From contig CAYPYS010000001.1 in assembly GCA_964415355.1 (NCBI GenBank), positions 283,819-347,818 on the forward strand: DNA of 64,000 bases, written 5' to 3'. Each line of letters begins with the position of its first letter. Positions within the stretch are counted from its first letter, which is position 1. Origin of the DNA: an uncultured Planctomycetia bacterium. Lineage in GTDB: Bacteria > Omnitrophota > Gorgyraeia > Gorgyraeales > Gorgyraeaceae. Made by a program: the position numbers and the translations under genes. The notes beneath the pieces are model-generated. The model was not told where the DNA came from. It worked only from the letters and a program-made list of their open reading frames with translations, and searched no databases. Positions 1 to 48,000 of the stretch are shown in pieces.

Positions 1-3000
1 ACTCAAAATTTTTAAACCATCTATTTCAAAATCTCCTCTAAATATCGAGGTGTATACCTCTTCAAGCCAATGGAAAAGCTCTGTCTTGCCGCTCAAGAAA
101 CTAAAAAGTCTTATATTTAAATCGAGCCTGTCACGCTTTGGCTGCCAGTCCTTTTCTTTTTCTCCAAAAATAGGGCCTGCGGCAGTTAAATAAAAATCCT
201 TTACGAACTCCACCATCACCTTTTCTTCAAAGCTGAGTGCATCATACTGCTTTTTAAGGTAACGTGTTATCATATTACCGAATTGAAAGTTAAACTGATT
301 ACTTCTGTCTCCCCATAAATCCTCTGCTGACTGTTCTTCCCCCCATAAAATAAAAGTACCCCATGCATTTTCATCAGCACCAAGAGCCAGGTCTTCAGTT
401 AAAACATCATGCTGTTTTAAATCTTGTCCTGAATCCTGAGGTATACGGTATATCGTGCGGGCTATTAAAGAGATTGCGCTCTTTAGAGGCACGCTTAAGA
501 AAAACCCAACTGTGCGCCAGCCAATCAAGGCAGAGTAAATAGAGACAAGGACTGTGGTAATTCTTACAAGATAAGGGCTTACCTGCGTGTTTGCTACTAT
601 CTTGTTCAAGGCCCTGGCCCATTTAAATCCCTGTCCTTTAACAAGAGAACCCACAGCAACTAATATGCTGCCTCCTGTAGAGGTCTCGTCATCCAGCACA
701 AAGAGCCAGGCATTTTTTAGATTGCCTATCCTTAAAGGCTTGTTCTTGCTGATAAAAATCTCATCTTTCTCGATATAAACATCCTTATCAGTTGTCCTGA
801 CCTTGGGCAAATATCCTGTATATATAGGAATGCTTTCAGGAGATATGATATATCTCCTGGAGATCATGATTCTTAGAATATTAGCTGCTTCCTTGACATA
901 GTGAAGCGCCCCTTTATCAGGCGCGAGCAGGACCAAAGGATTTTCTCTCAGCGTATCTATGATCTTATTGCTGCGCCTGAGCATTTCCGGCATATCCATG
1001 ACCTCGCCCTTCTTAGGCAATGATGCCCCGATCTCTTCAGCAAACACCTCAAAGAATAAATATTCAGCCAGCTGCACAAAACCATTGATATTTATCAGGC
1101 GTATATTTTTATATCTACTCAAGGACACAAGGCCGCGCTTTTTGCCCTGGCCTAGCCAAACCCAACCGCTCTCACGGCCATAATGCACATTGTTCGCAAA
1201 ATGAAGGTCTGTCAGCCAATCTAAAAGTAAAAGCATTGCCCCGGCTGAGATCACATCACCTTTTTTATCAGCCCTGTCCTTGCGCGCAAGGCCTTCATAG
1301 GTATCTATAAGCGAAATATGATTTACCCCAGCCCTGCGTAATTTGACAAGCGCCAGCAGCAGATAAATGACATTCTGGCTGTTCTCCGTAGAATGTATAA
1401 TAGCCACATCATCGCCCTTTTGTATATCCAAAGGAAGCGCAATATCATAATGAGCATTGCCATGATCGATGATCTGTATCATGCCATCCCTTGCCTTGAG
1501 ATTTTCAGCCACTCTCTGGGATTCAGCCTCAAACCTTGGTTGAATGCACAGTATCTTCTCTAGCGGGCCTCTAGGCATACTCTTGCTTCGACTTCTAGAA
1601 ATAGAAACTTCTTCTGTCCATTCTGTGCCATCGCTGCACATAACTTCATCGCCAGCATATCTCATCAACTCCAACAATATCTCATCGTCTTCCAGGATTT
1701 TTCCTGCCTCATCTCTTCGCGGCCTCCAGCTTAATAGTTTCAAAACAGCCTTCTTGGCTTTATATAATTTTGAGCCATCTGCGAGCAGGAGCACGGCAAG
1801 CACATTGTCATTCGAAGTCAACCCATCTTCAGAAACCAAACTTCGCTCAAGCTCTGCTTCAGACCCTCTAAGCTCTCGATAATTACTGATATTAATATTA
1901 GGCTCCCTATCCGCAAACTGCCCATACGTATACCTTAAGTTTACACTCTTACGTTGTTGAAGTGTAAACTCAAGGAGAAAAACGACGATTGCAACTGCTA
2001 GGACCATTACGATTACACACATAACAACTAGCATAACAATCCTGCCATCAGACCAGCCAATCATTTCGTTAAAGGCTAAATATAATGCTGCGTTATTGAA
2101 AAAGCCTGTATTACGGCTAGTTGGAGATACTTGTATATCGTATTTATGACTTCTGCCTTTTATGTCGCTAAGAGAACTAGCGCTACCGCAATGATCTAAA
2201 TGTTGTTTAACAGGAGCACTTATAGTAGCACTCTTTAACATAGCTAATACAATGACTACGGCTCTTTCTTCAGGAAAAACTCTTGCATAGACTCTTCTGC
2301 TACCTCTTTGTATTTCATAGAGACCGTGCTGCCTGCCATATTTCTTTGGAAATTTACTGTTAGAAGGATTAGCCAGTAAAGTCTCTAGCTTTCTTTGATA
2401 TTGCCTGGCTGAATAGTCACACTTATCAGTAACAGAATATACTTTAAATGTTAGCTTTTGCCTTTTTGAGCCTTGCTGTCGTAGAGATGAATTAATATAT
2501 TTCTCTCTAACTGGCCTATTTCCTCTGTTTCGTTTATTAGACTCTGGAGGCGGATCCTTGATTACATCTGATACCACTACATAAGGTTCTGGTTCACTCC
2601 TGCCTGTTTCGCCTATTGCTTCTTCCTCTTTTTTTCGAATATCAATCAAAAACTTTATAGGACGCCATATTGGCCAGGTTAATATCTTTAAGGCTTTAAA
2701 TATAAAAACAAATATTTCCCCTAAAACCTCAAAGACCCTCTGCATAAAATCCCATACTGGCAAGATAATATTTCCATATATCCATTTAATCCCTGAAAAA
2801 ACAGGAAGTATAAAATTGAAAAACAGACTAACAATGGCCAATGCACCAATAGCCATAACCATCATAATATTCTGTCCTGGTGTAAGGTTTTCTATTCTTG
2901 CTTCTATAAAGCCGATAACTAATACGACAAGTAAAGCTGTTACTATTGGAATTCCTATAACATCCCCTAATAGCGTATCAAGAAATCTATGCCTTACTTT

Positions 3001-6000
3001 ATTCCTTTCAACACACATCTTAATACCCTGCACTATCATCATTGAAACTAAGATAATAAGAGGCACGGCCCATATCAAATTATCAGCATTAAGGGGTGGG
3101 GCGTGGCGCCAGATGGCGTAGAGCAGGGCAGTTAATCCTACGATGAAATGCGAAGAAACCCTCCCAGAAGGATTTCTTATTTTGTCTATTATTCTTTCTG
3201 TATTTACCCTAGTACAACCCAAGCCCACGAGTACATCGTCGCTTAGATCGGGCAAGGCTATCTTAGCCTCTTTAAGCATGGCACGGCCTTCCTCGATAGC
3301 CCAGCCTCTAACATCAAGCGGCTCCATCAGATTCCATGCTATAGCAATATATACTTCTCCTGCGTCAGCCAAATCCAATCTACTTCTTGCAACGTCTAAC
3401 AGGAAACCTTCTTCTATATGAGGCTCTAGTTTGGTATTTAGTATTTTTTCTAGTATCGCCTTTCCTTTTTTAGCAGCCTCTTCTAATCTATTCTTGGTCT
3501 CAGCCTCTCTGAAAGTCATTAAAACCAATTTTGTCCTGGGCAATTTCGCTTCAGACCTAATCTCTTCAATTCGCTGCGGAGGCATAACCACCCCTGTCTC
3601 ACATTCTTCTATTATCTGACCTGTCTTCAGGCTATCTGTTAAAGAAGCATGCCTGGTATCTAAATAATAAAATTTTTGCCTTCGGCTGTCATACCTTATG
3701 CTTTCGTGGACCCTGGCATTTAAAAGATCTCGCGTCAACCAGTTTTCGCCATACATAGCAGCTACATCAGCAATAACAGCGCCTTGCGGCACGCGTATAA
3801 CCCTAAAATATCGCTTGCCTCTGTATTCCTTGCTTACAAAAATATAGACCAAATCCTCTATGCCTCCTAAAACTGCGTCAAAGTCCTTAACTGGATCGCC
3901 TGTAAACTCAATATCATCAGGAGTATATTTAAGATTCTTTTCAGTATTTTTCACTGTCCTCTCAACCTTATAAACCCAATGCGCAAGCGGCCCATGATAT
4001 CTATAGTTAAAATACTGTCTCTTGGAAGGAAATATCTGAAATTCAACGGCGATCTCTCTGGATCCAAATTCAACCCACTTACCTGCGTTGAAAGCCCTGT
4101 ATCCTACATCTGCCTCTCTTTTTTCTTCAGTTTGGCCCTTAATATCCTTTTGCCATATATCATAAATAGCCTCTATTGCTCTCCTGTAATCTTCTCCGTT
4201 TTTTGTAACAATCATTATGCCGCCCAAGTCTTTTAATGAAGCTACATCAGGATATTTTTCCTTTTCTATGACCTTTCTATAAGTCCGATACACGCCCTTG
4301 CATCTTCCTAAAACTTCGACTGATTTTATTACTGATTTTTTCAATATAGACTCGACATGCTTGCGCAACTTCTCGACCTCTTCCTTAGCCTCCTCATAAG
4401 TCATGCCAAGAATTTCTTCTATCTCTGCTATTGTCCGCCTATAAGCATCGGCATCATAAAGCTTAAACCATTCATCCTCTAGCGCCTCTGAAACTATATC
4501 AAGGCCGCGGCGTTCCGCAAGCGGAATATACAACTCATGCAATTCAGCCTTTAAATATTCTATTTCTTCTCTAGCATTAGCGTGCCTTATAGTACTTAAT
4601 CTATCCGCAAACGTAATAAGAAGGACCTCAAAGCGCCCTGCTAATTTCAATATCATATTCATCTGGTTATAGGCGTCCCATACGCTAGAATCAAGCAGCT
4701 TATAAGGAAGGGCTCGTATCATAGCATGCCTCTTAGTCATGAGGATCAATTCCTTGATCTGAGCAGGATCCAGAATATTTTCTTCTTTCAAAGAAGATCT
4801 AAGAACAGCGCTATCCAACGGGTGCAATAGACATGTGGCTATAAATAGATCAGGAACTTTTTCTGACCCAAAAGCATATTTATAAAATCTGATAAAGTTA
4901 CGGGTTACTTCTAATACGTGTTCTAAATAAAGCTCTCCGGAAGGATGGATCAGGTCTTTATATTTTTCCTCTGCGAAATCATAGATCTTTTCTATCAACG
5001 AGGTGTCTATAGAGTTTGACAGGATAAAATCTAAAACAGCTTTTTCTCTGCCATTAAACTTTTCTGATTTTTTGACTTCAGGAAAATCTTCCAATAAACT
5101 TGCAAAAACGCCTACTAGATAATCTTCTTTGTTCAAATCAAGATATCGCGCATACACAGATAAATATTGCATTGCTACTGAATGTTCTTCGCCAAATCTA
5201 GGGCTGGGGTTACAGATGCTTTGAACGAGCAGCTGCGGATCAAAATAGCCAGCTCTCATCATATATTGCCTGACAGACAACATTCTTAGAGCATCTCTTA
5301 ATCTACTGAAAGCTACTTTTAAATCATCATTATCTTTTATAGCATCGGCTATGTCTTTTTCCAGCTCAGCATTGAAAATATGCTCTAATAATGCACTATG
5401 CTCTGTTGCTTCTTCTGGGTTATATCTTGCCAGACTGGATATTTCCGGGAATTCTGCCAAACTAAAAAAGACCCTCTCTCTACCTAGAAGCACGGCCACT
5501 GTAAGACATGCTTCTAATGTTTCTGTCCTGACTTTAACCAAGGCCCTGAACTCTTTCAGTCTATCAAGGCGCCTATCTATCGCTACATCAACCATAGTCT
5601 CTGTAACACTCTTTATATCCAAGATATCAGGTGTTATACCTAAAACAGAAAATGCCCTTTCTAGCTCTTCCGTCATAGCCTTTTTTATATATGGCTTTCT
5701 AACGGACAAAGGACTGGATAAGATACGACTAATTTCTCCCCTATGACTTCTTAGGTTATCTTTTCCAGAGACAAATCCATAGTTTATAAAAAGAGTCTCG
5801 AGGCTTTTGGGATCCATAAGTCCCTCTATCAAGCCCATGACATAGTGTAAAGGCCTCTTGTCTCCGAATAATCCAACCTTATCAAATATCTCAACCCTTG
5901 CCTTAGCGTCTATTTGAGAAAGGACAGATGCGATCAAGACAGAAACCCAGCGCTCTCTAAGCTCTGCAACCCGCGGATTCGTTAAAGGAATGTCTTTGTA

Positions 6001-9000
6001 TCCAAAACCAAAAAGTCTCATAATTCTTTTGCATCTTATCTCAATGTTATTGACGAACTTTTTGTCCTTATTCCTTATATCCTGTAAATAGAGAAAAGCC
6101 TTTTCGAATAACAACACCTCTGTCAGGCTTTCGGGAATATTAAATACGTATGCATCTTTTTCAGAACTTAATATATATTCCTCATATTCATTTACTATCT
6201 TCTCTTGAATCTGGAATCGTTCTTCTGTCCTTACAGATTTACTGTTTCCAAAGCCTGCAAGCTTCCTGATCCCCTTTCTTACTTCATGCCTTACCTCTTT
6301 AATCAAATCTCCATATGCCGAAGCCAGTTCTCTATCATTGAATCTTAAGGCATATGCCATAGCAAAATACCCTATCCATAAAAGCGTCACTGCCCCGTCT
6401 AGATTCTCAAGCTGGCTCTCTACGCTCAAAACATCCAACGTCCTAAGACTATGGAGCCTATCAACTAGTTTTAGCATTACGGCTTTGTTTTCATCCTTAT
6501 GCCTTGCCGCTCTATATAATGAACTGTAGAATAAATGCTTTTTTTGATTACCATGTTCGTCTCTTTCGATTGTAAGCAACTCAACATACCTAGCCACCCT
6601 GTCTCCAAAGTTATGCTTTATCTCTCTGACTGTAGCTAAACCATCTTCGGGCAGATCATGTAACAGAGCAGCCATTATAATATCGATATCCAGTTGACCA
6701 AGCACCATAACTATCTCTGCTACAGCCGCAGGATGGCCTATCTCAGGAGTCCCTCTTTTCCTAAAACTGACCTTTTTTACCTGCGCAAGCCTTATAGCTA
6801 AAAAATCATATGCCTTTTTTATTAGCCGCATGTCTCTTTTGTCCACTTTTTCATCAAGAAGTTCTTCGATTCTCTTAAAATAACCCAGTTCAACGCTCTT
6901 GGTTCTAATATAACGTGTTAACAAGATCCCAGAAAAGAACATAATCAAAATCATCATCGAAAATACAACAAGATTTACTATCAGGTTTGGGTCATTTAAA
7001 AATCTATATAAAAGTAACGCGAGGGCCTCCATGGCGATTATTTTTAGCGTCAATAACTGAAACCCTGTAACGATAAGACTTGTAAAACTCGGAATAAATA
7101 GAGGATCCCATCCCCTGGTCTCGATAGTATTCTTTACTAATAAATATATGACCCTCTTTTGTATAAAACTGTCGTATAAATATCTCTTCTCGAGGAACGG
7201 CTTCATTTTTTCCGGGCAAATACGATAAAAGATATGTTCCGAACAATAATCTTCAAACCTAGCTATATTGATATGCTCTTCGTATTTTTCTGTAGCAATG
7301 GCTCGCGGTTTATGTAGCAAGAAACCCAAGATAACCAAAATAACTGGATCAAATACTGTAAGGATAAAGAATAATGCCATTATTAGATATGCAGACATAG
7401 TAACCGGGACCCGTTCTGCGATCAGCGATGTGATCACAAGCAGAAACATTAAAAATAAAGCGACAAAAATAAGATCTCTTTCTCGAAGTCCAGTTAAAAA
7501 TGACCACTGCATTGTTTCTTCTTTTTCACGAACAGGATATACATTCCTGATAAAGCTGGCAGCTATGGCAGTGAAAAATAAAATTAATAATAATAAACCC
7601 AGACCATATGAAAAAATAAAAGAAAACTTGCCAAAGCGAAGAACAAAAATAGACCCTACAAGGATTATAAGTAAGGGCGCTGAAATCCAATATATTATCC
7701 TGCCTATCCTGAGCATAGGGTAACTATTCGCTATAACATGCAAAATAATAGATAGGGCAAAGAACATTGGAATAAATAAGTCTACAGAAGGTTGCAATAA
7801 CCCCAATAATGCCGTGCTGACAATAGTAATAAATAGTCTTCCGTCAGAAAATGCAAAGGTGAGTTTTTCTTTGAAAGAATTTTCTTTTGAGCGAGGAATA
7901 TGCAAGAGGTGCCAGAAAATACGCGCACATAAATATGCTAGAATTACTGGCGGGCCATGCGCAAAGGGTATACCAAATGCTCGGCTTAGCAAGAGAGCCA
8001 GGCCGCAGACAAATATTGCTTCTTCAACAAGGGCTGGCGCAAGCGCCTGGCCTATAAAGCCATGCCCGATCTTATCATATAACCACTGCAGCCATGGAAA
8101 ACGCCCACCAAGAACCTCCAGATCTCCTTGTAGAGATTCTAATTCTTCTTCATATTCAATAAGGTCATCGACCAGGTCCAATGATATAGCAGCCAACAGG
8201 TCGCTAAAAGCCTGCGTTTTGTCATGTTTGTTATCTAAAAATGAAGACAAGGATGCCCCTCCGCTAGATAGCTCAGCCTTAGCTTCATCAGCTCTTGTTA
8301 TACGCGCCTTGGCATTACTAAGATCACCAAAAAGACGTCTTTTTGCTGGGTCTGAATCAGAAGCTTCTACTAAGTCCGCTAATTCATTGCGAGCTCTTTT
8401 TTTATCTTGAACAGCCTCTTTTCTGAACTGGCTTATTTCTTTCGATAATTTTCCCCTGGTGCTTCTTACTTTTCTTCTAGCCTTTGCTATTTCTTTCTGC
8501 TTCTTCCTTATTTGTTTTTGAAGTTCATCATCCTCAGTCATCCCGAATTCAGCAAACATACTCATCTGCCCAGGAGAAACCCTGGTTTTTCCGCGTCCCC
8601 TCCACGCCATCGCAAACATGAAAGCTGTAAAAATCACCATCACAAAATCAGCTCTAAGTATACTTTCAACATTGTTGAAAGTATACTTAAGCAGGGCGAA
8701 GATGATAAAAGGTAGTGCTAGTGAATATAGAGTGATATACTTTTTCTGCACAGCCTCCGATACTCCCTGGCTCTTATAAGTTTCCCAATTAGATGCAGAC
8801 CAGATCTCAATAACCCCACCCACCCCTGCTATAACGACTTTGCTTAATCTCTTTATGCCGGCCTCTTTGCATAATCTACTACCTAATGGTAAACATCCAT
8901 TACTATTAAACCCTTTCCCTCCTTTATCAGGAATAACTCTGATATAAGACAAGCTCTTATCTTCTCCTATCAACAGCTTAACTTTTCCATCTGAAGATCG

Positions 9001-12000
9001 ATCTAATTTATTCCGAATAGCTGCCGGAATTAGAACTCTATATCTAAAATCTAAACGCTTTTTATAATTACTCATAAATACAGAGCCTATGAAAATAGTA
9101 TTATTTGCTAAAGTATAAGGAGAGACAAGTTTTGCAGTCTTGGCAGCGACCACAAGAGCATTAGACGGAGGGAAAAACCAAAGTAGCAAGAAAAAGAAAA
9201 GGCCTACGCATAATCCTATTATAATTAGAACAATGCCTGCTCTTATGCCCATTCTAGTGATATTACTTGCTGCGCCCCGTGCCTCTCCTACTTTGCGAGG
9301 ATCTAAATGCTTTTCATCGATCAATGCTATTTCTTTTTTATCATAACCTCGTCTCTCTAACCAGTTCTTTACAATATGATGTATGCCTCTATAAATTATA
9401 TATAAGACAAGGCCTGCAATAGTTATTATAAGCAAGTTATATAAACTTAACCCTCTCCCCATACTGTAGGTCAGGTTTAAACCTGACCTACAGTATGGGG
9501 AGAGGGTAAGGGTGAGGGGAAAGAAATATAATAGGATTGAGACGAAGTCATTTTTATTTCTTTTTCTTGGAGGGCTTCTGCCAGCATGAAACTTTCGTTC
9601 TTTAGTTCTTAGGGGTGTTTGTCCATGAAATTCTCTCAATGTATCTGCATCCTTTTCGTTTGCAACTGCGATAGTTACTGAGTCTCCTTGCCTAGATCCA
9701 CCATTATTACCTTGATCACTGCCAAAAGAAGTATCTTTCCATGAATCCCTAAGGCGTGGGTCAGGATTATCATTTCCTCTTTTTCTTCTTCTTTTCTTAA
9801 AGCTTTTCTCTATGGCTGGCAGGAATAATTGTTCTGCAAGGCTTAGGGTCAGCTGGGCTTCCAGGTTATCTATTATCTGAAAGCCACCTTCTAAGTCAGT
9901 GATCCAGCCGCTTATAGTAGTATTAGTATCTGTATTATCTCTAGTTATAACATCATCCATTATAGACTCACTTGTAACTAGGCCTTCATCTAGCCTTAAG
10001 TCAGAGCGGGTTACCTCTATAGCGCCCTGGATATCACTTACAGCATCCTGGATCCTCTTCTTGGGAGAATCTAGGTTTTCTACAGCCCTGGTCCTTTTCC
10101 TTATGCTTTCACCTAACTCATCAGGGTCTTTGGTCTCTGATATCTCTGGTAACTCAGGGGATGAGATATCGATATCTATTTTTTTAGGTTTTCCTCCATT
10201 AGTAGGCTCTACTTTTACAGTTACTGTGCCTCCTAATGCCTTTTCTCTTTCCAGCTGGTTTAGCTCCTCAAGGTCTTTCCAGAGTTCATCTATCACTCTT
10301 TCTTCATGAAGCCTTGCTGCCTCTTTAAGGCTCTTTAAGCGTGCTCTTATATCTTTTTGGACCCTTAAGGCTTTTTGTTCAAGGCTGCGTGCTTCTATGA
10401 TGATCCTTTGGGACCTTTCTAAGAGTAAGTCATCGTTTTTATTGAGGCTCGCTATTATTACCTCCACCATTCTTTCTATGTCTTTAACCATACCTTGAGT
10501 AGCCTTATATTCTTCTTCTAAAGAGGCCTTGGCCTGATCTAATCGTTCTTTATTATGGTCATGTTGAGTTTGTGCTTCTAGCCTTAACTCTTCTACCTGG
10601 AGCAGGTGTCCTTTCTTCTTTTCCTCCACTAGCTCTTCCAAGAGCGTTATTCTCTTTACCAGTTCTTTTAAAGCTCCTTGTGAGCTTTTTTGGGTCTTGT
10701 GTAAGAGCGCGGTAGCTCTTCTTCCTATCTCATTGAGGTTCTCCCTTGCTTCTAAGGCTTTTTGCATGACTTCTTCACTTGGGTTATCTAGATCGATCTC
10801 TTCGAGGGCTAAAGTGGCAGTTTTATGCTCTTTTTGTGAGAGAGTAGCTAACTCTAGAGATTCATTATTGGTCCTTTCTACTAATGTCTCTACGCCTCTA
10901 GTGAGAGAAGCTAATTCATCTTTTACGTGGGAATCTGCTTCAGTTAATATGTCATTCATCTCTAGTAATAAGGTATCTATATCGCTGTAGCTTGTTACTA
11001 CCTCATCTGTCAGGCTAAAGACATTGGCTAACCTTAAGGAGAGTTTTTCTATGGCTTCTTTATAAGTAGGTCCTACATTGCTTAAGGCTTTTTCACTCTC
11101 TCTTCCTATATCCAGTGCAGTTTTTAAGAGTTCGCTGAGCCTTGAGGCTATTTTCTCGATATCTTTCTGGTAACTTGAGTGGTCTATGGGTTCAGTTTGT
11201 ATGATCTCCCTTAGAGAAGAGAGTATGGTAACCAGGTTCTCTTCTGCGCCTACTACAATAGTTGATGCCCTCTCGAGTAATGCGTCATTGATCTTTAATG
11301 AATCTAAGGATATAGAGAAGTTAAGGCTTTTCTCTATCCTGGAGAGCCTTTCATCTACTTTATGGATCAGTCTTGTCAGTTCATTTGATAGGTTCTCTAG
11401 CTCTATCTCCCTAGCTTCTAATTCTCCCTCTCTTTGTAGCCTAAGGCTTCTTATCTTTATGCTTAATTCATTTATTTCTCTTATTATATCAGTCAAGGCC
11501 TCTTGTTTTTCTTTTAGGCTTGATACCCAGTTTTGTATCTTCCCTAAAGTCTCTTCTGTCTCTTGATTCATGTTCTCTGTCTCTAGTTGAGCTTTTTCAA
11601 GGAGCGTCTCGACCTCTCTTATGATCGATAGGATCTCTATTTCTATTTCATCTAATTCTTTGGTTACGCTTGTTATATAACTCTCCAGTTCTAATGATGA
11701 CTCTTCTATTTTCTGGGAGTCTTTATTTAAGGAGCGGGTGAGGGTACGCAGTTTTTCAGCATCTATCCCTTTACTCATTATCTCTATCATGTTTTGGTGA
11801 GACTCTTCTATGGCTTCTTTTTTTTCTTTTAGTTTTTTTCTATATTCAGAGACTTGCATTAAAGTTATGATGAATCTAAATAGGTTGGCAAGGTGTCTTG
11901 ATAAGAAGCTTGAAAGAGCTTTTAGCATACTAGCTAGAGTCCTGGTGAAAGTTCTTTCGCTTTTTATTACACTCTTACTAAATAAAACAGGTAGTTCAGT

Positions 12001-39000: not shown

Positions 39001-42000
39001 CAGGAGTTCATGTTCAAACACTATATTCTGTGCCCATTTAGGGAGATAACCATAGGCGGGATGATATTGGATAGTATCAGTAGTTTTATCATATGAGGCT
39101 ATTGCAGTACTATAATATGCTATGAATCTCGGAGGGCCTCTTTTCTTTATTGTATCTATTATAAAGGCAAGATATATTGCAAAAAATAACATGAGAAATT
39201 TCACGGCCTTTGCAAACTTAAGGTTAGTAAGGGCTATCCATGCTCCCTGTAAGGCAACCTTAGGAGACATAGTACTCTGTAAATTAGCAGGCAATGTCTC
39301 TGTACGAAGCGCATCTCTCCTTGAAATGCTCAAGGCCAATTTTTCTGCCCTTGATGGCATCTCTTCAAACGTTAAAAGCTCTGATAATATCCAAGCGTCC
39401 CACTCTCCTGGAACAGGCTCTGAAAAACCGAGACGGTTCTTTACATCATCTAATAACCAGCTAAGAAAACGGGTCAATTCTTCCGCGGACATTCCCCTGT
39501 CTTTAAAATCCTTATAAGCCCGTTTAGCGATAGGCAATAATAACTCTAAGGATGTATTTTTATGATGCCGCAGCCATCTCTGGATATCCAAATCGGCTTC
39601 CAAGATGCCATGACTGCGATACCACGTAAACCTCCCACTTGCACGCCAATAGTCCAATCTGCTTCCTACAGGCAGCCCTGTATTAAGCCACTTTTTAGTT
39701 TCGGCGTCATGCTCACCAAGCTCCCAGAGCGACCATTCAATTAGTCTGGCCATTCTTTCTTCGCTCTTGATCTGTGCCTTTTTACGGGCAATCAAAAGAT
39801 CTTCTAAGGAGATCTTTTCTCCTATCAGCTCCTCGATGCTGACATAGGGCTTTTCCATTACAATCACGCCAGCCCCTGGCTGATGGAACCATCGTCTATC
39901 AGACCAGCGATAAGAAGCGTCAAAAAAGAGAAATCCTTCCCGTTGCAAAGAATCCACCCATTGCTCGATTGCCTTGAATTCAAACGGAAACGGCATAGGG
40001 CATTCATTGACAATAATATTGACATACCAATCACTGAAAGCCAAAAAGAGGTTTTTCTGCTCACGATTTAAAGCTAGGAATAAGTCACGCAACTCTGGAA
40101 ATTCAGGGTCGCTACCCACAGTAATAAGCATGGAGTAGCTGTCTTCGAATAGCATTAATAGTCCCCCTTGTTTTAAAATGCGCTTATTTTCCTCTACAAA
40201 GGAACTGAAAAATCTTTCTTCTACATGATGCATAACAGTATGTTGTATTACTACATGGACTTCTCCATCTCTAAAAGGCAAGCTAGTAGGATCAGTCTGA
40301 TGACAAAAACTTACTCTCTCGCCTTGGTATGGTTCATTAACTCCCATGTCACAGCCTATAACCCTAAGCCACGGCCTGCCTCTGACCATCTCCCTTCCAA
40401 GAAGATTCTTGCCCGCCCCTATATCAGCAACAACTACATCCTCGCCTGTATGGTCGTAAAGCGCATCGATATATGGCATGACTAACTCTAAAGTAGGTTC
40501 GAACTTATTCCCGCCCTGGCGATAGAGTCTGTAGGCTTCTTGAAATTTAACATCTGTCTTAAAGCGAATGACTTTATCATAAAGAACCTCTTGCGCTTTT
40601 ACAGGATCATTTGCATGTTCTCCCAAAGTATCTATGATCCTCTCGGCTAGGTCAGAGGGAAGTTTGTATCGCGAATATCTAAGTGTTAGTAGCCCTAATA
40701 TTACTTCTCTTACTTCCAAATCCTCTAAGGCTATAAGAGGATTCCAAGCTAATGGAAATTGATTTTCTTTAATAGCGACTGCACCTAAAGCTTTAGTTAA
40801 TAGATTCTTCCACGGTGGACTGCGCGGAGAATCACTGTTTCGCGAGTCTTGTGATCCGAAAAGGCCTAAGAGCATAAGAACAGGGCCTATAAGAGATTGC
40901 TTAACCTCTGTGGCGGTCGCGATGGAGGCAGTAGAGGCAAATATACCTGATCTCCCCAACATCTGAATAAGGTATATTAACATTAACGAAATAGAAAATG
41001 GATTAACGATCCACATCATAAAACCATCCCGGAACCTTGGATATCTCCAGGTAATCCTGCCTTCTGTAATAGGACGTCCCATAGGAGAAGTCGCTGTTAT
41101 TTCTCCCTCTACAGAGCCTTCTCGTATGTCTAAATGGCATATCCTGATCACTGTTAGGAAATGAATTAACGCGACAATAGAAAATATCCAATAACTGGCT
41201 GTAAGAAATGTAAGATCAAGGACATCAAAGGAAGTGACAAAAATCCACGCAGCAACACCTAATATAACAAATATACCTGTTGTCCATTGCATCCATCTGC
41301 GATATTCTCTTTGAGCTCTAATAGCTGTATTCTGATAACCGCGTTCTGCAACCTCAGGTCCCATATTGGAAAAAGGATCATCTGAGTCAGGTTGTTCTAT
41401 AATTTCTGGCATAGGCCTGAAGAAATCAAGCCACCACGCAGTCCCAATACCAATGCCAATACAATAAGCTATAAAAAAAGCCTTAAGCCCTGCATGTCCT
41501 ATGTTCAATAGTGCATTTTGATTTATAGAGTACAAGACCCATGAAACCCATGCCCCTATGAATAGATACCATAACAGCCTATAGAAATTCAGCATTCGCC
41601 TGTTTATAGAGTCATCATCGGAAACCGTGCCTATAAAGATAAGGAAAGAACTGGAGAGTACAGAAAAGGAAGACATGTCAGAGACTATTCCTGGCGGGGC
41701 ACGGCCGGCAAATATGCTTCGAGCAAAGTCGAGGAAGTGCCGAGATGTCCCGGCGAGGCCAATCTTTGTGCCATCAAATACCAAAGGCAGCCAGTCTACA
41801 TTTTCCTGGAGCGTCATAAAAAACCAGCCAATGCCAAAGGCAGCTACTATGATAACAATCAATCCGATTGCAATAGCCCATAGGCTAAATTCTCTATTTT
41901 TTGCTTTAGATAGATCAACATCTCTTGCAACATGTTCGTTAGCAGCTCTACGCTCTCCTGTCTGAGCCTTCTTTGTCACGCTCCTAGCCCACATAGCTAA

Positions 42001-45000
42001 CAAGAAAAATACCGCAACAATAACTCCTATAATAGCTATAAACGGATTTCCACCAGCCCCGGCAGAATAACCCACGTCTGACATTAAAAATGCCGTTAAA
42101 ACAACGGGAATAATAACATATGCTTTTGCCTTGATCGCCTTTTCTGCCTCTGTTTTAGGCAAAACTAAGAAAGGTATCAACCGAATAATATCCGAGATAC
42201 ACCCTGCAAGAAATAAAATATTTATCTCACCAAGAAAAATCAGAACATGTGATCCACTGTTCAAACCAATACGAACTAATATAAAACCTGCGATACTGTG
42301 TATAGCTGCAGGCATTATTAACGTAAAAATCCAACCCAAAACAGAATCAGGGAAAACTTTAATGTCAGCTTCAAAACCCATAGCAAATCTCCTTACACTT
42401 GCTCCCTCTGCCCCAAACAATCTAGCTACCCATACATGAATCATTTCATGAAGTAACGTCAGACCAAAAATAGCTGGTATCACTAATCGAGCAGCATCTG
42501 TTTCCTTCCACACATTTTTTAAAGAAGCCAAACTTACGGAACCATTTAAGAGATCAGATATAATCCCATAACCAGGGATGCCAAGTAAAACGATATAGAC
42601 GGAAATTACGAAAATGGAAATGATAGCCACTGTTAAAATTAATGGAGCACTTTCTTCTTCTGGATCATTATCTTCTGGATCACTATCACCCAATCTGCTG
42701 TATGCTTTGGTGTTTCTTGCAATAATCATTATGATTAAAAGTGCTGATGCTGCAATTAATATTGCTTTAAAAATCATTTGAGATGTAGCAGGACTGAGAG
42801 TAAGTTCAAGTTGCTTTGACTGCTCCACGGCAGCAGTCAAAGCTGTTGCGTCCTGAGGCTGCGGTATATATGTATCAGCTATAAGTCCTCCGAAAAAACC
42901 TATCAAGAAACAGATAACCGCAGGGCCAAAAGAAGTTCTATCTCCTGGCTCTTTTCCTAATTCTGAAAGGCCTAATCCGAATACCATCCCTACAATTCCC
43001 AAAACAACAGCAGTTACTAAAGGAGTAATTTCAGTGGAAGAACTTGTCTCTGAGTTTACGCAGCCAGATAGGAATAAAAGAACAGATAATATTAATAATA
43101 TAAGCGGGGCTCGTGAATACCAAGAATCTCTATCTTCTGACTTAGCAAAGATAGAACCCATGAATAGAAAACCAAGAGATTGCTTCACACCTGCGGTGCT
43201 CGCAATGACAGGACTCAGTGCGCCATTAAAATTAGCAGCAACAGGCATCATAGAGCTTGAAATTTCTGACGCTATAAAAAAATGATAGATTATTAAACCT
43301 ATAATAACTAAAAACAGAAGCTGGAACATGGCTTTGATAATTTTTTGGCGCATTGTAAGAGGAGGGCCAGTTTCAATACATCCTCCGCATTGTACAACCT
43401 TACTAGGGATCTCAACGGATGGGTTCAATTTTTTGCCTACTATTCCTAAAATAATGTGCACAAGAATAAATAGAATGCCTCCTATCCACGCAGCTGCTCT
43501 TAGAGAAAGATCTTTATATATCAGAAGCCACCCAACTCCTAACATAAGCAAATTAAAGATAGACCATAAAAACTTTCTTACTCTTATATATTCCTTAGAT
43601 ACATTGGTGTCAAAGACAACGTAGCTGCCTCCACTGCATTGTGCACTTTCCCCTGTATTATGCTTACGCTGGCCAATACCTAAGATAATGAACATAGAAA
43701 CATAACTTTCCGTTTCAGGCGCGAATAAGCCAGAACCAAATATTTCACCCCAGGTAGACAATACAATACTAAAATTCTTCGTAGCTAACCATGCTGCAAT
43801 AGCTGCAACACCAAGAAGAACCAATCCTAATTTAGGTCGTTTATTTAAAAAGGATGCGATAGCGAACCACGTAGCCCCAATTATAGCAGCAGAACCACCT
43901 ATGGACCATAAGATAGGCTGTATTAAAAGATCCTGAACGCCTTCTGCGCCATGATAGATCTTCCAACGGTTAAAAGGCATGACTACTTTAAGATCGAATG
44001 TCAGCTTCGCATACAATGCAAACAAAATAGCAAAAACAACAAAAAGTGCAGCGCCTATCACAATCATCCAAAACATGGCTTGATTAGTAAGTTTTGTTCG
44101 AGCGCGATATAAAATCTCTCTTTCACTTGGCGCAGCAAAATCTTGTCGTGCTAATTCTTCTTCCGTTTGTCTCCGCGGAAGTTCTTTTTCAAGAAAATCT
44201 TCAAAAATATTTAAACGCTCATCGTCAGATCCGCCTCTTCCTGTAGTACAAAATAATACTGGCAATAATATATCAGGAGAAGCAGGGAGATGTGAAGTTA
44301 AGAGCTCTATCGCAGGCGATATAGCGGAATTTGGGTTATTATCAGGCAACGCTGATATTAGACCTAAAACTAAAGCGAAAATAACAATAATTGCAATAAT
44401 ACAGAACGCAGTCGAAAATTTCAGTTTTTCTGATGATTCAATATAATCATATTGTGTTTGTGTAGCAGAGACTTTCCCTAACTGTTGCCTGCGTCTTCTT
44501 AGATCCTCTGTAGCTTTTATTATTTTTCTTATGACTAAGGACATAATGATAAGTAAAACAACCTCCCCTGCTAAAAAAGCATATGAAAACGTATTTGCAT
44601 CTTCACCATGATGTCCTGGATGTCCTGCGGCTAGTACTTGAGAAATAGGAATTGCTGAAAGGATTAAAGCAAAAACAGGTATTGCGAGGATCTTAAGAAG
44701 TTTATACCATGGAGGGCTGCGTGGAGACTTGTTATTCCTCCAACCTTTCGATCCAAAAAGAGTTGCGACTATAAGCGCAGAACCAATAAGAGATTGCTTT
44801 GCGAAGTTTATCCCGAGCGCAGTCGAGGAACTCGCAACAACATCCTTGCCTGCCATAGCAATCAGAGACATATTGTCGAATAAATTCGTAAACGATATAG
44901 AAAGCCCAAAAACATGTCTAAAAGGAGTTTTTAACATCCAGATCAGATTTCTCCAATCAAACAAATCCAACACCGACAAACATCCTATAACAAAAACTAA

Positions 45001-48000
45001 GATAATAACTGAAACTATTACAGGCACTCGCCGCGCCACCTTTTTCTTTATTTCTTTATATTTTTGACCTGCTGCCTCTCTTCTCCTAAGATTTTCTATT
45101 CCTTCTGCATCGGGTCTTATGATAACTATAGCCTCATTATCTAACTTTAAAGAATCCCAATAAAAATTAAGGATTTTGTCTGTAACAACACCAATTAAAT
45201 TTATAATACTATGAGCCATTATAGCGGCTAACATTCCGGCAAGCCTCCCATATAAGATATTGCCTATGGTATAGAGAATAAGAAAGAACCCCCTATAAAG
45301 AAAATACACGATTCTAGTTTTTGTAGAATCAGCACTATGAGCAAATGAAAAAATACCACAAAGGACAACCGCCCCTAATATCAAATTATTGAGCATTGAG
45401 TCAAAGACAATGACATAACAACCAATGTATAAAAATTCCTCAAACAAAGGAAATATAGACACCTTGAAGAAACTTGTTACTATGCTCTTTTCCGGAAGCA
45501 ATCCGTTTATTAGAGGGGCTTGTATAAGTATTGATGCTTGCACAGCAAGCAGAGTAAGAATATGCCATATTAGCAAAGAAAATCTAAAATCTTGAATTTG
45601 GATTAAATCAAAAATATCCCATATCAAACATGAAGATAAAACTACTGAAAAAACAAAGAATATAACTCCAGAACGCCATGAACCAATAATATCTAAATCA
45701 TTTTCTTCTGGATACTTTGCAGTTAAGATCTTTTTCACTAAACGCCATATCAAATAAAACTCAAGAGTCATTATAATAAAATTGGCTATAAGAGCTCCTG
45801 TTCTAATGTCAAAAGCCCTGGCAAGAAGGATTAAAGTAAGAGTGGGTATTGCGAGGATCTTAGCAAGTTTATACTTAGGCGGGCCGCGGGTAGAATTGCT
45901 GTCTCGCGAGCCCTGTGATCCAACAAGACCCAAGAACATAAATGGAAGACCGGCAAGAGATTGCTTCGCTTCGCTCGCAATGATGGAATAGATTCCCGCT
46001 TTCACGGGAATGACATTGGTTGTAGAGAGGAAATAGGTTATACCTATGAATAATAATATTGCGGTTGCTGCTGTGGGGGCTGCTGGAGCAGTTGGCTTAG
46101 CTGAATCGCCGTTAGTCTTTTCATTAGCTATAACTATCACTTTTTTTAAATACTTACGGTCTTTGATAAAATTTTCGTCTTCTTTGAACCACTCTATATC
46201 AAGAGCTGGGAATCTCTGTTTGTCATTCAATAAATCACGCATCTTTTCAAAGACCTTTGAAGCCAAAGCTTTTGCTTCAAGATAAAGCTCTATAATGCGT
46301 TCCTTGAGTTCCTCATGGGAATCCTCTTTAGCTATCCTGCTTAATGTTTCCGCCTTGTCAAATACCTCATCTACTTCTTTAAGAGCCTCTTCGATTTCGT
46401 ATCTAAACAAACGCTTCTGAGCCGTTATAGTCTCTATCTCCGCACTAAATAATTCCACAACTGTCTGGGATGAGTAGACTCTATCTTTTTCGTCTTTTAA
46501 CAAGCTATAGTCATAATTATCATCGAGTGAGTTTAGTAACTCACGTCCTTCTTGTATCTTTCTGTAAGCTGCCCCAGGATTAGGTTCTCTACCAGGCTCT
46601 GCCTTAGGATCTTTGCCTGGTTTTACTCCTTTGAGTAATTCTTCTGCTTGTAAAATAATTATTGCAAGACGATTCTCAAACCTTGCTAATTCCTCTTCAA
46701 TAAACTGTCTACTGATATCATGTATTATGCCTGAGAAAGTTCTTATATTGCTAATATATTCACTATTTTTTATATTCTCAGGTGCTGCTTTTAATACATC
46801 TATTAATTCATTGCATTTCTCATGTCCAAGCACTCTATCCCTAGTCTCTTTATGCGCTACATAGATATCCTGCACATAAGGCACCAGACTAATCACAAAT
46901 TCTGTTATCTCTATTGCCAGAAGCAATGCAATACGGACTGCTTGTATTTCCTCTAATGACTGCCATAGATTGCCTCTATCGTCCTCTCCTGGTTTGATGA
47001 TCTCTAGTGCTCTAGAATAATTTTCCAAAGCCCCCTCATAGTCACGTGCGGCAAATAAATGCCACGCCTCATCGGCATAATCTGCCAGTCGGCTCTTTAT
47101 ATTCCTGAAAATTTGAGCGTTTTGTATTGCTATAAGGCTGGTGTAGATCTCGTCTGCTTCAGTAGATATTTCTTTTAATAAAGCATCGATATCATCATGC
47201 CTGATAAATGAAGTAGGCAGCCTCATTTCACGCAGTAATGCCTCTGGATCCTTTAAGGATTCAGCCAGGTTAAGGGCCTCGATCAAGTTAGGCTTTCCGT
47301 CTTCTGATAAGGCTTGTTCTATTGCTTTTATCTTTTCCATAGATGCTCCAAGCCATTTTTCTATACGCGCTGTCCTTATCCTTATCGTATCTGCTTTAAT
47401 CCTTTGTGGTTCACCTGTCTGTTCAGTAGTAATTCTTATAAACTCTACGAAATCTTTCCTTTGCGTAGCCAATGCTTCTTGTTCTTCCCGTTCTGCCCAT
47501 TCTATTCTTTTATTTCTAAGCGCCTTTACCACCATAACTGGATTAAACATCTTTTCAAAAATAACGCTATCGTCACCGGCAACCTCTATCTTAACAGTGC
47601 CATACCGAAATACATTTGCCCAAAATCCCTCCAGCAATGCCTCTTCGCTCTGGATCTTATCAAATGGTATCTCCTTTTTGTCGCTATCTTCTGGCGGGAA
47701 GCCAGGAAATGTCGGTATCTTAAAAACAAACCCTATCCTGTCTTCTCTTAAGATAAATTCATCATCTTTCCAATCCTCAACTGCATACCAGAACTTGTAT
47801 AATGCAGCCAATAAAGGTACAGCAGCAGAAATAATAGCTCCTCCGCCTATCACTCCCGTTAAATCCAGCAAGAAAACTATCAATGATATTAAAACAATAC
47901 CTTCGGAAATAAGCCCTGAATAATCATTTCTCTTATCCTCTTCATCATCCTCTTTTTTATTAAAATTAAAAGCTGCTAGATGCATTAAAAATATCAATAT

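Follow-up and report, generated by a model that had tools for sequence, protein, structure and literature searches.

A giant Omnitrophota reading frame carries an alarmone and PRPP enzyme block

We analysed a 64,000-nucleotide stretch of DNA (the window) from an uncultured Omnitrophota bacterium (assembly GCA_964415355.1, contig CAYPYS010000001.1, positions 283,819 to 347,818) and conclude with high confidence that it encodes a real, conserved block of alarmone and phosphoribosyl pyrophosphate (PRPP) enzymes within an Omnitrophota-type giant protein. Positions (win) are those of the window, and feature coordinates refer to its minus strand, so N- to C-terminal order runs from high to low numbers. 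The block comprises a (p)ppGpp-hydrolase-like HD domain with its complete ligand set (HD#1), a linker, a RelA/SpoT homologue (RSH) core and a module resembling PRPP synthase (Prs). A first-pass annotation, made from the letters of the window, had proposed an intact HD followed by a pseudo-HD, a synthetase, a TGS domain and a Prs-like domain, and this order was borne out by hidden Markov models, PDB alignments, AlphaFold models and Foldseek. The motifs that it quoted (LLHDLPED, LLHPL, AHWVYK and VLDDETSTGGS) are all present, and the residues agree with its proposal that a SpoT-like hydrolase and a RelA-like synthetase share one chain.

The block is embedded in a single continuous minus-strand frame that spans win 1-63999. 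This open reading frame (ORF) has 21,333 codons and zero stops, and chance origin of a 64-kb stop-free frame is impossible. The GC skew is uniformly negative along the whole window, and the frame carries about 15 different enzyme and scaffold Pfam domains and about 60 strongly hydrophobic, 19-residue transmembrane (TM)-like segments in Kyte-Doolittle windows. These features fit the giant Omnitrophota class of proteins, with more than 10,000 amino acids (aa), many TM helices and many distinct enzyme Pfam domains. The block had been placed in the C-terminal part of the giant protein; that placement is unsupported, as the frame continues past the window on either side.

The RSH core has a long-RSH fold with a predicted dead hydrolase

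The RSH core (win 3190-5058) consists, in order, of a pseudo-HD with an LLHPL motif, a synthetase (SYN), a TGS-like domain and a helical domain. In a phmmer search against the PDB, win 3301-5400 aligned end to end over 560 residues with Bacillus subtilis Rel (6yxa, residues 25-540; E 1.8e-13). With 14 aligned sequences as input, AlphaFold modelled win 3079-5100 at a pLDDT of 82.6 and a pTM of 0.82. In a Foldseek search of the PDB, this model aligned best with full-length Rel and SpoT and with RelA bound to the ribosome, over 570-620 columns (E 8e-18 to 1e-13), and there were weak matches to the small alarmone synthetases RelQ, RelP and CapRel. Structure prediction returned a long-RSH fold for this core and a PRPP-synthase fold for the Prs-like module, and of the Pfam families named in the first-pass annotation, HD_4 (twice), RelA_SpoT and Pribosyltran_N scored over their cut-offs.

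The pseudo-HD (win 4336-5058) is supported by HD_4, by alignment to 6yxa and 1vj7 and by helices at residues 15-255 of the model; the HD_4 match itself, which scores 32.7 bits (cut-off 27.2), spans roughly win 4500-4980. Equivalents of His53, His77 and Asp144 are retained, Asp78 is replaced by Pro (LLHPL, win 4816-4830) and the ED pair is gone. Judged by these residues, the second HD domain is a RelA-type dead hydrolase. SYN follows at win 3901-4335, as defined by PF04607, PDB alignments, a motif table, the model and Foldseek. RelA_SpoT (PF04607) matched about win 3960-4305 with 28 bits, narrowly over its cut-off of 27. The SYN motifs are GRCKGVYRTYRKV, DLGGIMIV, GYRAFN, VEFQIFP and AHWVYK (win 3967-3984), and the alignment shows that equivalents of Asp264 and Glu323, GRCK...RK (RxK...K), the Asp of DLGG, the Tyr of GY, the ExQ of VEFQ and AHWxYK are retained.

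The TGS assignment stood on fold and profile comparison and not on Pfam, where zero matches were found even at E<=1. When the TGS stretch of 16 subfamily members was compared with that of 28 canonical Rel proteins, hhalign gave a probability of 97.9% (E 6.6e-13, 112 columns), and the AlphaFold model superposes on full-length Rel and SpoT across 612-620 columns, TGS included. Together with model strands at residues 417-501, these comparisons place a TGS-like beta-grasp with two insertions at win 3586-3894. The helical domain (win 3190-3579) occupies the position of the long-RSH alpha-helical domain, with model helices at residues 508-630 (pLDDT 80-95) and an alignment to 6yxa that reaches residue 540. 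No ZFD/RIS or ACT/RRM domain follows it, with zero ACT matches in Pfam; TM helices come next.

A second, intact HD domain lies upstream of the RSH core in the same chain

HD#1 (win 6412-6894) is an HD_4-type, (p)ppGpp-hydrolase-like domain supported by Pfam, NCBIfam, PDB alignments and motifs. It matched HD_4 over win 6415-6762 with 53 bits (E 4e-14; gathering cut-off 27.2) and TIGR00691 across the N-terminal 130 positions of that model (E 5e-20). In the PDB it matched Thermus thermophilus Rel (6s2v; E 2e-13) and human MESH1 (E 4e-11). The motifs RKRGTPEIGHP, LLHDLPED (win 6643-6666) and KLVDRLHSLRTL make up a complete His / His-Asp / Glu-Asp / Asp set, such that RxxGxPxxxHP, HDxxED and DRLH are all retained, the last as VDRLH. 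Upon alignment, conserved catalytic residues are present in both domains, with a full ligand set in HD#1 and the Asp, Glu, RxK...K and AHWxYK of SYN.

HD#1 is not free-standing. Directly N-terminal to it is a cluster of about 8-10 hydrophobic TM-like helices (win 6916-8043; Kyte-Doolittle), which is collinear with a cluster in the relative P0014, and C-terminal to it is a helical linker of about 450 aa (win 5059-6411), which is conserved with the P0014 C-terminus. About 600 aa separate HD#1 from the synthetase. The linker matched no Pfam or NCBIfam family, and a degenerate second RSH was ruled out at hhalign sensitivity (probability 0.2 against the RSH family).

A three-domain Prs-like module follows a short membrane-associated stretch

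The HD-RSH block ends in four or five TM-like helices (win 2680-3132), recognised by Kyte-Doolittle hydropathy, sequence and lysine plus arginine (K+R) counts of the flanks. About 220 aa of soluble sequence come after these helices, then one TM helix and then the Prs-like module. That single, very hydrophobic helix (win 1972-2028; Kyte-Doolittle score 3.51) aligns with the N-terminal signal/anchor helix of free-standing Prs-like proteins. Within the soluble stretch, win 2235-2415 (GLYEIQRGSRRVYARVF...VVIVLAM) weakly resembles ParE/RelE toxins (Pfam ParE_toxin, E 0.011, 16.8 bits, under the cut-off of 23). It had no sequence match in the PDB, and we treat it as a lead only. A similar stretch, RVFVRVFPNEKTFVIV, occurs at residues ~1290-1310 of the relative P0045, upstream of its RSH-like module.

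The Prs-like module (win 598-1950), which is lineage-specific, was identified by Pfam, NCBIfam, PDB, family alignment and model, and has three domains. An extra, Prs-N-like domain (N', win 1633-1950) holds the F-x-D-x-E 'flag' motif as FADRE; the N domain (win 1087-1557) holds HST, TYEGLARKDR and NVHYG (NNVHYG); and the C domain (win 598-993) holds APDKG, GYLPKVR and LDDETSTGG (VLDDETSTGGS at 667-699). In canonical Prs, F-x-D-x-E lies in the same N domain and works across the dimer interface, as in the B. subtilis structure. Pribosyltran_N matched about win 1221-1515 with 35.7 bits (cut-off 25). In the C domain the motifs are kept and the modelled fold matches Prs, but Pribosyltran scored 16.7 bits, under its cut-off of 26.3, and the last ~100 aa of the module are diverged. 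TIGR01251 scored 56.5 bits (cut-off 113), and three collinear pieces of the Methanocaldococcus jannaschii Prs (1u9y) matched the module (E 8e-9). The AlphaFold core (residues 31-470) had a pLDDT mostly of 75-92, and the top 50 listed of 77 PDB matches of the model in Foldseek (E<=0.001) were PRPP synthases or their PRPS-associated homologue PAP39, with TM-scores of up to 0.76 relative to the target.

Relatives of the module share 28-37% identity with it at more than 90% coverage. They are free-standing proteins of 490-560 aa from Omnitrophota metagenome-assembled genomes (MAGs), labelled by NCBI as 'ribose-phosphate pyrophosphokinase-like domain-containing protein'. About 40 residues are invariant in this family, including all substrate-loop motifs, at an overall identity of 24-33%, a pattern typical of active-site selection, and the window copy retains every one of them. 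In two Omnitrophota assemblies, the Prs-like gene lies within tight co-directional arrays, next to CofD-like, PGI and 6-phosphogluconolactonase-like genes in one, and a transaldolase, a 1,847-aa protein and a SecA_DEAD protein in the other.

Parts of the block recur in relatives and its RSH core belongs to a separate clade

Relatives of the RSH module were collected by an exhaustive HMMER search (6,037 matches). Word-indexed protein searches, with the module alone or a 14-sequence profile, returned only ordinary Rel proteins at about 25% identity, and scans of genome and metagenome contigs for the module returned only the 2.6-kb contig of one HMMER match, P0010. The best HMMER matches were partial Omnitrophota MAG proteins, with 39% identity over the RSH core for P0010 and 32% for P0011 to P0013. 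A 174-aa fragment (P0009) on a 577-bp ENA contig was 100% identical to win 4741-5262; identity in a separate contig independently confirms the junction between the linker and the pseudo-HD.

Upstream of the core, the C-terminus of P0014 (6,485 aa) is collinear with win 5212-7575, that is, the TM cluster, HD#1 and the linker (27% identity; E 8e-73). P0010 and P0014 share the inter-module motif TSKSGGH and have neighbouring accession ranges, so they are probably pieces of one giant gene. If both are one gene, the whole TM-HD-linker-RSH block would be conserved in that MAG. In P0013, an RSH-like module is followed by a Prs-like module 400 aa later and a second Prs-like module further on, and P0021 carries an RSH-like module and a separate HD_4-like domain with an HD dyad (Pfam 22.9 bits, under the cut-off of 27.2). 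Thus, the window is not the only case in which a dead-hydrolase synthetase and a separate HD domain occur together, and the RSH-like to Prs-like order is also seen more than once. Many RSH-like members are internal to long proteins with HAD, GNAT, PGK, starch synthase, LMW phosphatase, TPR or ACT domains; ACT is present in some of them (P0045).

We aligned 82 RSH modules and built a neighbour-joining tree. About 50 were canonical Rel/SpoT modules with LLHDxxED, ADRLHNMRT and EIQIRT. The other group, with 32 members including the window, has K, R, S, H, T, A, C or P after LLH, and never D. Its members have a FADKL-type sequence at the ADRLHNMRT site, RxKxxYSxxEK, AHWxYK, D(D/E)xxGx in which another residue often takes the place of the Arg, a GYxAxH that varies, and E-x-Q without IRT. 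The SYN Asp/Glu, the RxK...K patch and AHWxYK are retained across the clade at 23-38% mutual identity. The longest internal branch of the tree splits the two groups, and the window adjoins P0010. Named members are Omnitrophota, including Ca. Orphnella occulta, and two distant ones are labelled Endomicrobiales and Saganbacteria. On this alignment and tree, the RSH core is a member of a separate, mostly Omnitrophota clade and not a housekeeping Rel.

One free-standing RSH-like relative, P0015 (722 aa, with a signal-like N-terminus), is encoded at L003/L004 10001-12169, and immediately upstream of its gene are those for a PhoR/PhoB-like two-component system and a porin, and pstSCAB-phoU. This neighbourhood hints at a tie to phosphate supply.

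Relatives of the modules have anchor or signal-like N-termini

Topology was judged crudely, by Kyte-Doolittle TM parity and K+R counts of the flanks. At the TM helix before HD#1 there are five such residues on the module side compared with one on the other, and at the helix before the Prs-like module there are three compared with one. Most domains of giant Omnitrophota proteins have been predicted to be extracellular, a prediction that its authors call unlikely in some cases (West-Roberts 2023, 10.1101/2023.11.21.568195).

Elsewhere, the modules have counterparts that are anchored or exported as proteins in their own right, judging by the anchor or signal-like sequences with which free-standing relatives start; in five RSH-like relatives, A-x-A and then LRP follow the signal-like segment. 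The free-standing RSH-like proteins P0012, P0015, P0018, P0020 and P0048 have a signal-like helix, A-x-A and 'LRPVAY', and many end in '...AA'. In one Prs-like array (L001 2394-11560, GCA_023819145.1), the CofD-like, PGI, 6PGL-like and Prs-like proteins, all of them enzymes of a cytoplasmic type, each start with a hydrophobic helix and [F/L/Y]RR[I/L/Q], with K next in three of the four. This pattern of N-terminal helix and motif may be a common sorting or processing signal. P0014 has 11 copies of TSKSGGH and P0010 has one, and P0013 (5,805 aa) has a domain of about 100 aa with 'YHELISHI' (HExxH) before each enzyme module; both elements are candidates for cleavage sites or self-processing, and neither occurs in the window. 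The window ORF had no internal repeat (blastp 1e-5), no k-mer recurring more than three times and no TSKSGGH. Promoter-like and terminator-like sites at the module borders were counted at chance level.

A membrane-tethered synthetase and hydrolase pair is the favoured reading

Tentatively, and with a little under an even chance in our estimate, we favour a membrane-tethered, ribosome-independent pair of a RelA-like synthetase and a SpoT/Mesh1-like hydrolase beside a second ATP diphosphokinase, as read from sequence and models. The RelA-like pyrophosphokinase would move the beta,gamma-diphosphate of ATP onto a purine nucleotide to form (p)ppGpp or a close analogue, and the upstream SpoT/Mesh1-like HD#1 would remove this product. 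The opposing activities of one bifunctional Rel would here be split between two domains of one chain. As a second ATP-dependent diphosphokinase, the Prs-like module would convert ribose-5-phosphate to PRPP, and its N' domain may give in cis the 'flag' motif that a neighbouring subunit gives in canonical Prs. We would place the HD-RSH block on the cytoplasmic face, because all of these enzymes need ATP, which is available there, and the local K+R counts agree. A link to the ribosome is not expected, since TM helices follow the helical domain and there is no ZFD or ACT. The block is proposed to control or supply nucleotides locally, on behalf of the giant protein, rather than to act as the classical stringent factor of the cell.

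Several observations weigh against this proposal. The RSH core scores far under the cut-off of TIGR00691 spoT_relA (70.5 bits compared with 499.2), and the Prs-like module is likewise short of that of PRK00934 in NCBIfam (E 2.8e-17; 62.8 bits, cut-off 296). In SYN, the Arg of DxxGxR is replaced by Met, the His of GYxSxH by Asn, and the RT after ExQ by FP, and the acceptor-binding stretch (canonical PK.NGY) is unconserved within the RSH-like subfamily, so activity and product are uncertain. The HD#1 orthologue in P0014 lacks the ED pair and the last Asp, which means that hydrolase activity is not conserved across the giants. The last ~100 aa of the Prs-like module (win 301-597) are aberrant, forming a hydrophobic tail that is off the family consensus in the alignment and has a pLDDT below 50. 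As for location, the K+R flank test along the whole ORF gave no global trend (11 wins and 16 losses), TM parity was likewise inconsistent along it, and published topology predictions for giant Omnitrophota proteins are contradictory (West-Roberts 2023, 10.1101/2023.11.21.568195; Nielsen & Lui 2026, 10.64898/2026.06.07.730766). Furthermore, a signal-like N-terminal segment was found in 12/22 RSH-like relatives with intact N-termini compared with 0/12 canonical Rel proteins, and a signal-like hydrophobic N-terminus in 10/11 Prs-like relatives.

These N-termini, which resemble Sec-type signals in the RSH-like relatives and in some cases include A-x-A and a conserved LRPVAY, lead to the main rival, an effector directed at prey or host, which we consider unlikely. 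The RSH-like and Prs-like modules would be exposed on, or released from, a surface protein of an episymbiotic or predatory Omnitrophota cell, and in the cytoplasm of the partner they would consume ATP and make (p)ppGpp or (p)ppApp, or pyrophosphorylate tRNA, like toxic alarmone synthetases; HD#1 would protect the producer in cis. Consistent with an effector, the domains of the giants are mostly predicted to be extracellular and have been tied to type II secretion-like loci and predation (West-Roberts 2023; PMC10066038), there are precedents for secreted and toxic alarmone synthetases that HD-type hydrolases neutralise (PMC7229694; PMC11782079), and the weak ParE-like stretch and a MraZ/AbrB-like match lie nearby. 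However, the enzymes need ATP, which is absent outside cells, and the local positive-inside signal places HD-RSH and the Prs-like module inside. In the Prs-like, PGI and CofD-like relatives, the conserved Arg/Lys residues that come soon after the N-terminal helix are as compatible with membrane anchors of a cytoplasmic domain as with signal peptides, the synthetase is a long RSH with TGS and not a small toxic one, and the window has no recognised delivery domain. The broader claim that the RSH clade and the Prs-like family are exported diphosphokinases, on or cut from giant surface proteins and acting in the cytoplasm of attached prey or host, we regard as quite improbable. If true, these would be the first long-RSH enzymes to serve as contact-dependent weapons, and some part of a giant Omnitrophota protein would for the first time have a concrete biochemical role: the ATP of the prey or host would be drained, and alarmone made or tRNA pyrophosphorylated.

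Processing of the ORF offers an explanation that is compatible with the others, somewhat unlikely as it may be: the ORF would be cut or internally initiated into membrane-anchored enzymes, the fusion would be only genetic, and HD#1-RSH and the Prs-like module would act independently, like their free-standing homologues. Indeed, Prs-like is a separate gene in the arrays of other Omnitrophota (with PGI, CofD-like, 6PGL-like, transaldolase, large unknown proteins and SecA_DEAD), the N-terminal helix of its free-standing form aligns with the internal TM, related long proteins have repeated inter-module elements (TSKSGGH in P0014/P0010 and the HExxH domain in P0013), and C39 or S8 peptidase domains may cleave giants (West-Roberts 2023, 10.1101/2023.11.21.568195). 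Yet the window ORF is without a recurrent linker motif or internal repeat, its promoter-like and terminator-like sites are at chance level, the only peptidase-type match is a weak zincin-like one at win ~42.2-42.5 kb with none near the region, and published proteomics cannot yet tell an intact from a cut chain (West-Roberts 2023, 10.1101/2023.11.21.568195). That the RSH-like and Prs-like modules are catalytically dead, and act in a fast-evolving scaffold protein either as sensors that bind nucleotides or as structural spacers, we think very unlikely. The very long branches, scores far under family cut-offs, SYN substitutions at usually conserved positions (in the window copy and variably in the subfamily), the degenerate HD#1 of P0014, the diverged Prs-like tail and the high divergence of giants' domains generally (West-Roberts 2023, 10.1101/2023.11.21.568195) would all suit such pseudoenzymes, but the clade-wide retention of the SYN Asp and Glu, RxK...K and AHWxYK at 23-38% identity, the complete ligands of the window HD#1 and the ~40 invariant Prs-like residues at 24-33% identity weigh against a loss of catalysis. 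Finally, there is a negligible chance that the long frame or domain order arose by mis-assembly or sequencing error. Fold-back artefacts can yield palindromes such as the 58-bp and 35-bp ones found ~2-3 kb upstream of HD#1; against this stand the stop-free frame, its uniform composition, the linker/pseudo-HD junction in the independent public contig and a block order conserved with P0014 and P0010 at 27-37% identity.

The container is known and the enzyme block appears to be new

Giant multi-enzyme Omnitrophota proteins are already known as containers. Giant ORFs of more than 20 kb are common in Omnitrophota, with few annotated domains and a function openly called unknown (Seymour 2023, PMC10066038). 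They include the 'Archaeovorins', with NUDIX domains, methyltransferases and many TM helices (West-Roberts 2023, 10.1101/2023.11.21.568195), and class-1 'multi-enzyme metabolic clusters' of up to 147,155 aa (Nielsen & Lui 2026, 10.64898/2026.06.07.730766). One co-occurrence module of published Omnitrophota giants consists of methyltransferase, HATPase_c, GNAT, HAD and HD domains, and HD domains, NUDIX, methyltransferases, GNAT, HATPase_c and kinases have all been listed in such giants (West-Roberts 2023; Nielsen & Lui 2026; Seymour 2023). RelA/SpoT, ppGpp and PRPP synthase go unmentioned in the main texts of these giant-protein papers, and one supplementary file of Nielsen & Lui 2026 has no RelA_SpoT, HD_4 or Pribosyltran_N entries. 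Our literature search found no relevant paper joining Omnitrophota and ppGpp. The 'previously undescribed fusion context' of the first-pass annotation therefore needs narrowing: giants with such mosaics have been published, and it is the RelA/SpoT and PRPP synthase modules that are unmentioned there. What appears to be new is the RSH-like clade with its traits, the cis pairing with an HD, the three-domain Prs-like family and the recurrent adjacency of RSH-like and Prs-like modules, none of which was found in the literature searched. For none of its 13 long-RSH subfamilies does the 2020 classification, in the accessible part of its text, mention the traits of this RSH-like clade (PMC7229694).

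Like other Omnitrophota giants, the window is a mosaic of divergent enzyme domains with few close relatives, and its nearest homologues are Omnitrophota MAG proteins. The RelA_SpoT, TGS and PRPP-synthase-like modules that it carries go unmentioned in the main texts on those giants. SecA_DEAD and C39, typical of full-length giants, were not seen in the window, nor was an S8 peptidase domain, and the ORF ends and its flanks lie beyond the window. The core shares its fold and its order of HD, SYN, TGS and helical domains with long RSH proteins (6yxa, 7qpr, 5iqr and 1vj7) and, as in RelA, a dead hydrolase accompanies a synthetase with its Asp and Glu retained. It differs in sitting between TM clusters of a protein of at least 21,333 aa, in having no ZFD/RIS or ACT/RRM and hence no evident ribosome- or tRNA-sensing C-terminus, and in the replacement of 'ADRLHNMRT' and 'EIQIRT' and an unconserved acceptor stretch.

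HD#1 resembles small alarmone hydrolases (SAHs; Mesh1 and PbcSpo/ATfaRel-type SAH) in its full H...HD..ED...D set, and the pairing of an intact hydrolase with a hydrolase-dead synthetase recalls SpoT/RelA or SAH antitoxin/toxic small alarmone synthetase (toxSAS) pairs (PMC7229694). In contrast to SAHs, HD#1 is not a small protein and shares one polypeptide with the synthetase. With toxSAS proteins such as FaRel, FaRel2 and CapRel and with secretion effectors (PMC11782079, PMC7229694), the window shares the SYN fold, variable acceptor residues, an HD hydrolase (here in cis) that could neutralise the product, and relatives that are possibly exported. However, it has a long RSH with pseudo-HD and TGS, no two-gene toxin-antitoxin operon and no known delivery domain. 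As in the class I Prs of B. subtilis (1dku) and the class III Prs of M. jannaschii (1u9y), the Prs-like module has two PRT-type domains, the C-terminal one putative, with the motifs YARQD(R/K), DLH/NVH, PDxG, KxR and DD..(T/S)TGG. Unlike Prs, it has an extra N-terminal Prs-N-like domain with F-x-D-x-E, plus an N-terminal anchor helix.

Giant proteins take up a large share of the very small genomes of Omnitrophota, and this region provides a tractable handle on them in the form of three soluble modules from known enzyme classes, for which standard assays exist. For research on the stringent response, it points to a clade of long-RSH proteins that are without the hydrolase Asp, are embedded in the membrane or have a signal-like N-terminus, and are accompanied by a cis HD hydrolase; the ribosome-sensing C-terminus is missing in the window copy, and ACT is kept in some relatives. 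The fused and free-standing states of the Prs-like module are a concrete case of the relation of giant genes to ordinary gene arrays.

Other features of the giant frame

The remaining Pfam matches, all on the minus strand, are spread along the frame. They comprise bPH_2 (~48.5 kb), the weak zincin-like match (~42.3 kb), Methyltransf_11 (~40.2 kb), guanylate kinase (Gmk, ~38.5 kb, 39.4 bits), NUDIX (~37.5 kb, 45.4 bits), PFK (35.2-36.2 kb, 152.8 bits), GNAT (~30.2 kb), two Pkinase domains (~28.8 and ~27.4 kb), HATPase_c (~25 kb), a methyltransferase (~17.7 kb) and HEAT (~16.3 kb). The MraZ/AbrB-like match (~8763-8883; 24.8 bits, cut-off 23) lies in a TM-rich stretch upstream of HD#1. No Pfam match at E<=1e-3 was found in the first ~4,500 residues of the frame (win ~50.5-64 kb). 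Of the further nucleotide-handling domains in the first-pass annotation, PFK, NUDIX and guanylate kinase were recovered and the nucleotidyltransferase was not, with no Pfam match at E<=1e-3 at 58.1 kb. The idea that these domains and the block form a single GTP/GDP/(p)ppGpp toolkit is also unsupported: Gmk, NUDIX and PFK are ~30 kb from the block with dozens of hydrophobic helices between, and in relatives the RSH-like module travels with HAD, GNAT, PGK and starch synthase, only the RSH-like to Prs-like order recurring.

Two perfect palindromes lie in the coding frame. One (win 9450-9507) is 58 bp long (29+29, spacerless) and encodes ...LTLSPYCRSGLNLTYSMGRGL..., and the other (win 8655-8689) is 35 bp long (17+1+17) and encodes ...LLKYTFNNVESILR...; none of equal quality was found elsewhere across the 64 kb. 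They could be hairpin sites or fold-back assembly artefacts. The sole long ORF on the plus strand (win 48857-50254, 465 aa), which starts with TTG, overlaps the giant frame in antisense orientation and is probably spurious. The densest run of TM-like segments, about 30 helices between aa 5970 and 7680 of the giant ORF, coincides with win 40,000-46,000, the only place where the AT skew is positive, which probably reflects U-rich hydrophobic codons of the coding strand.

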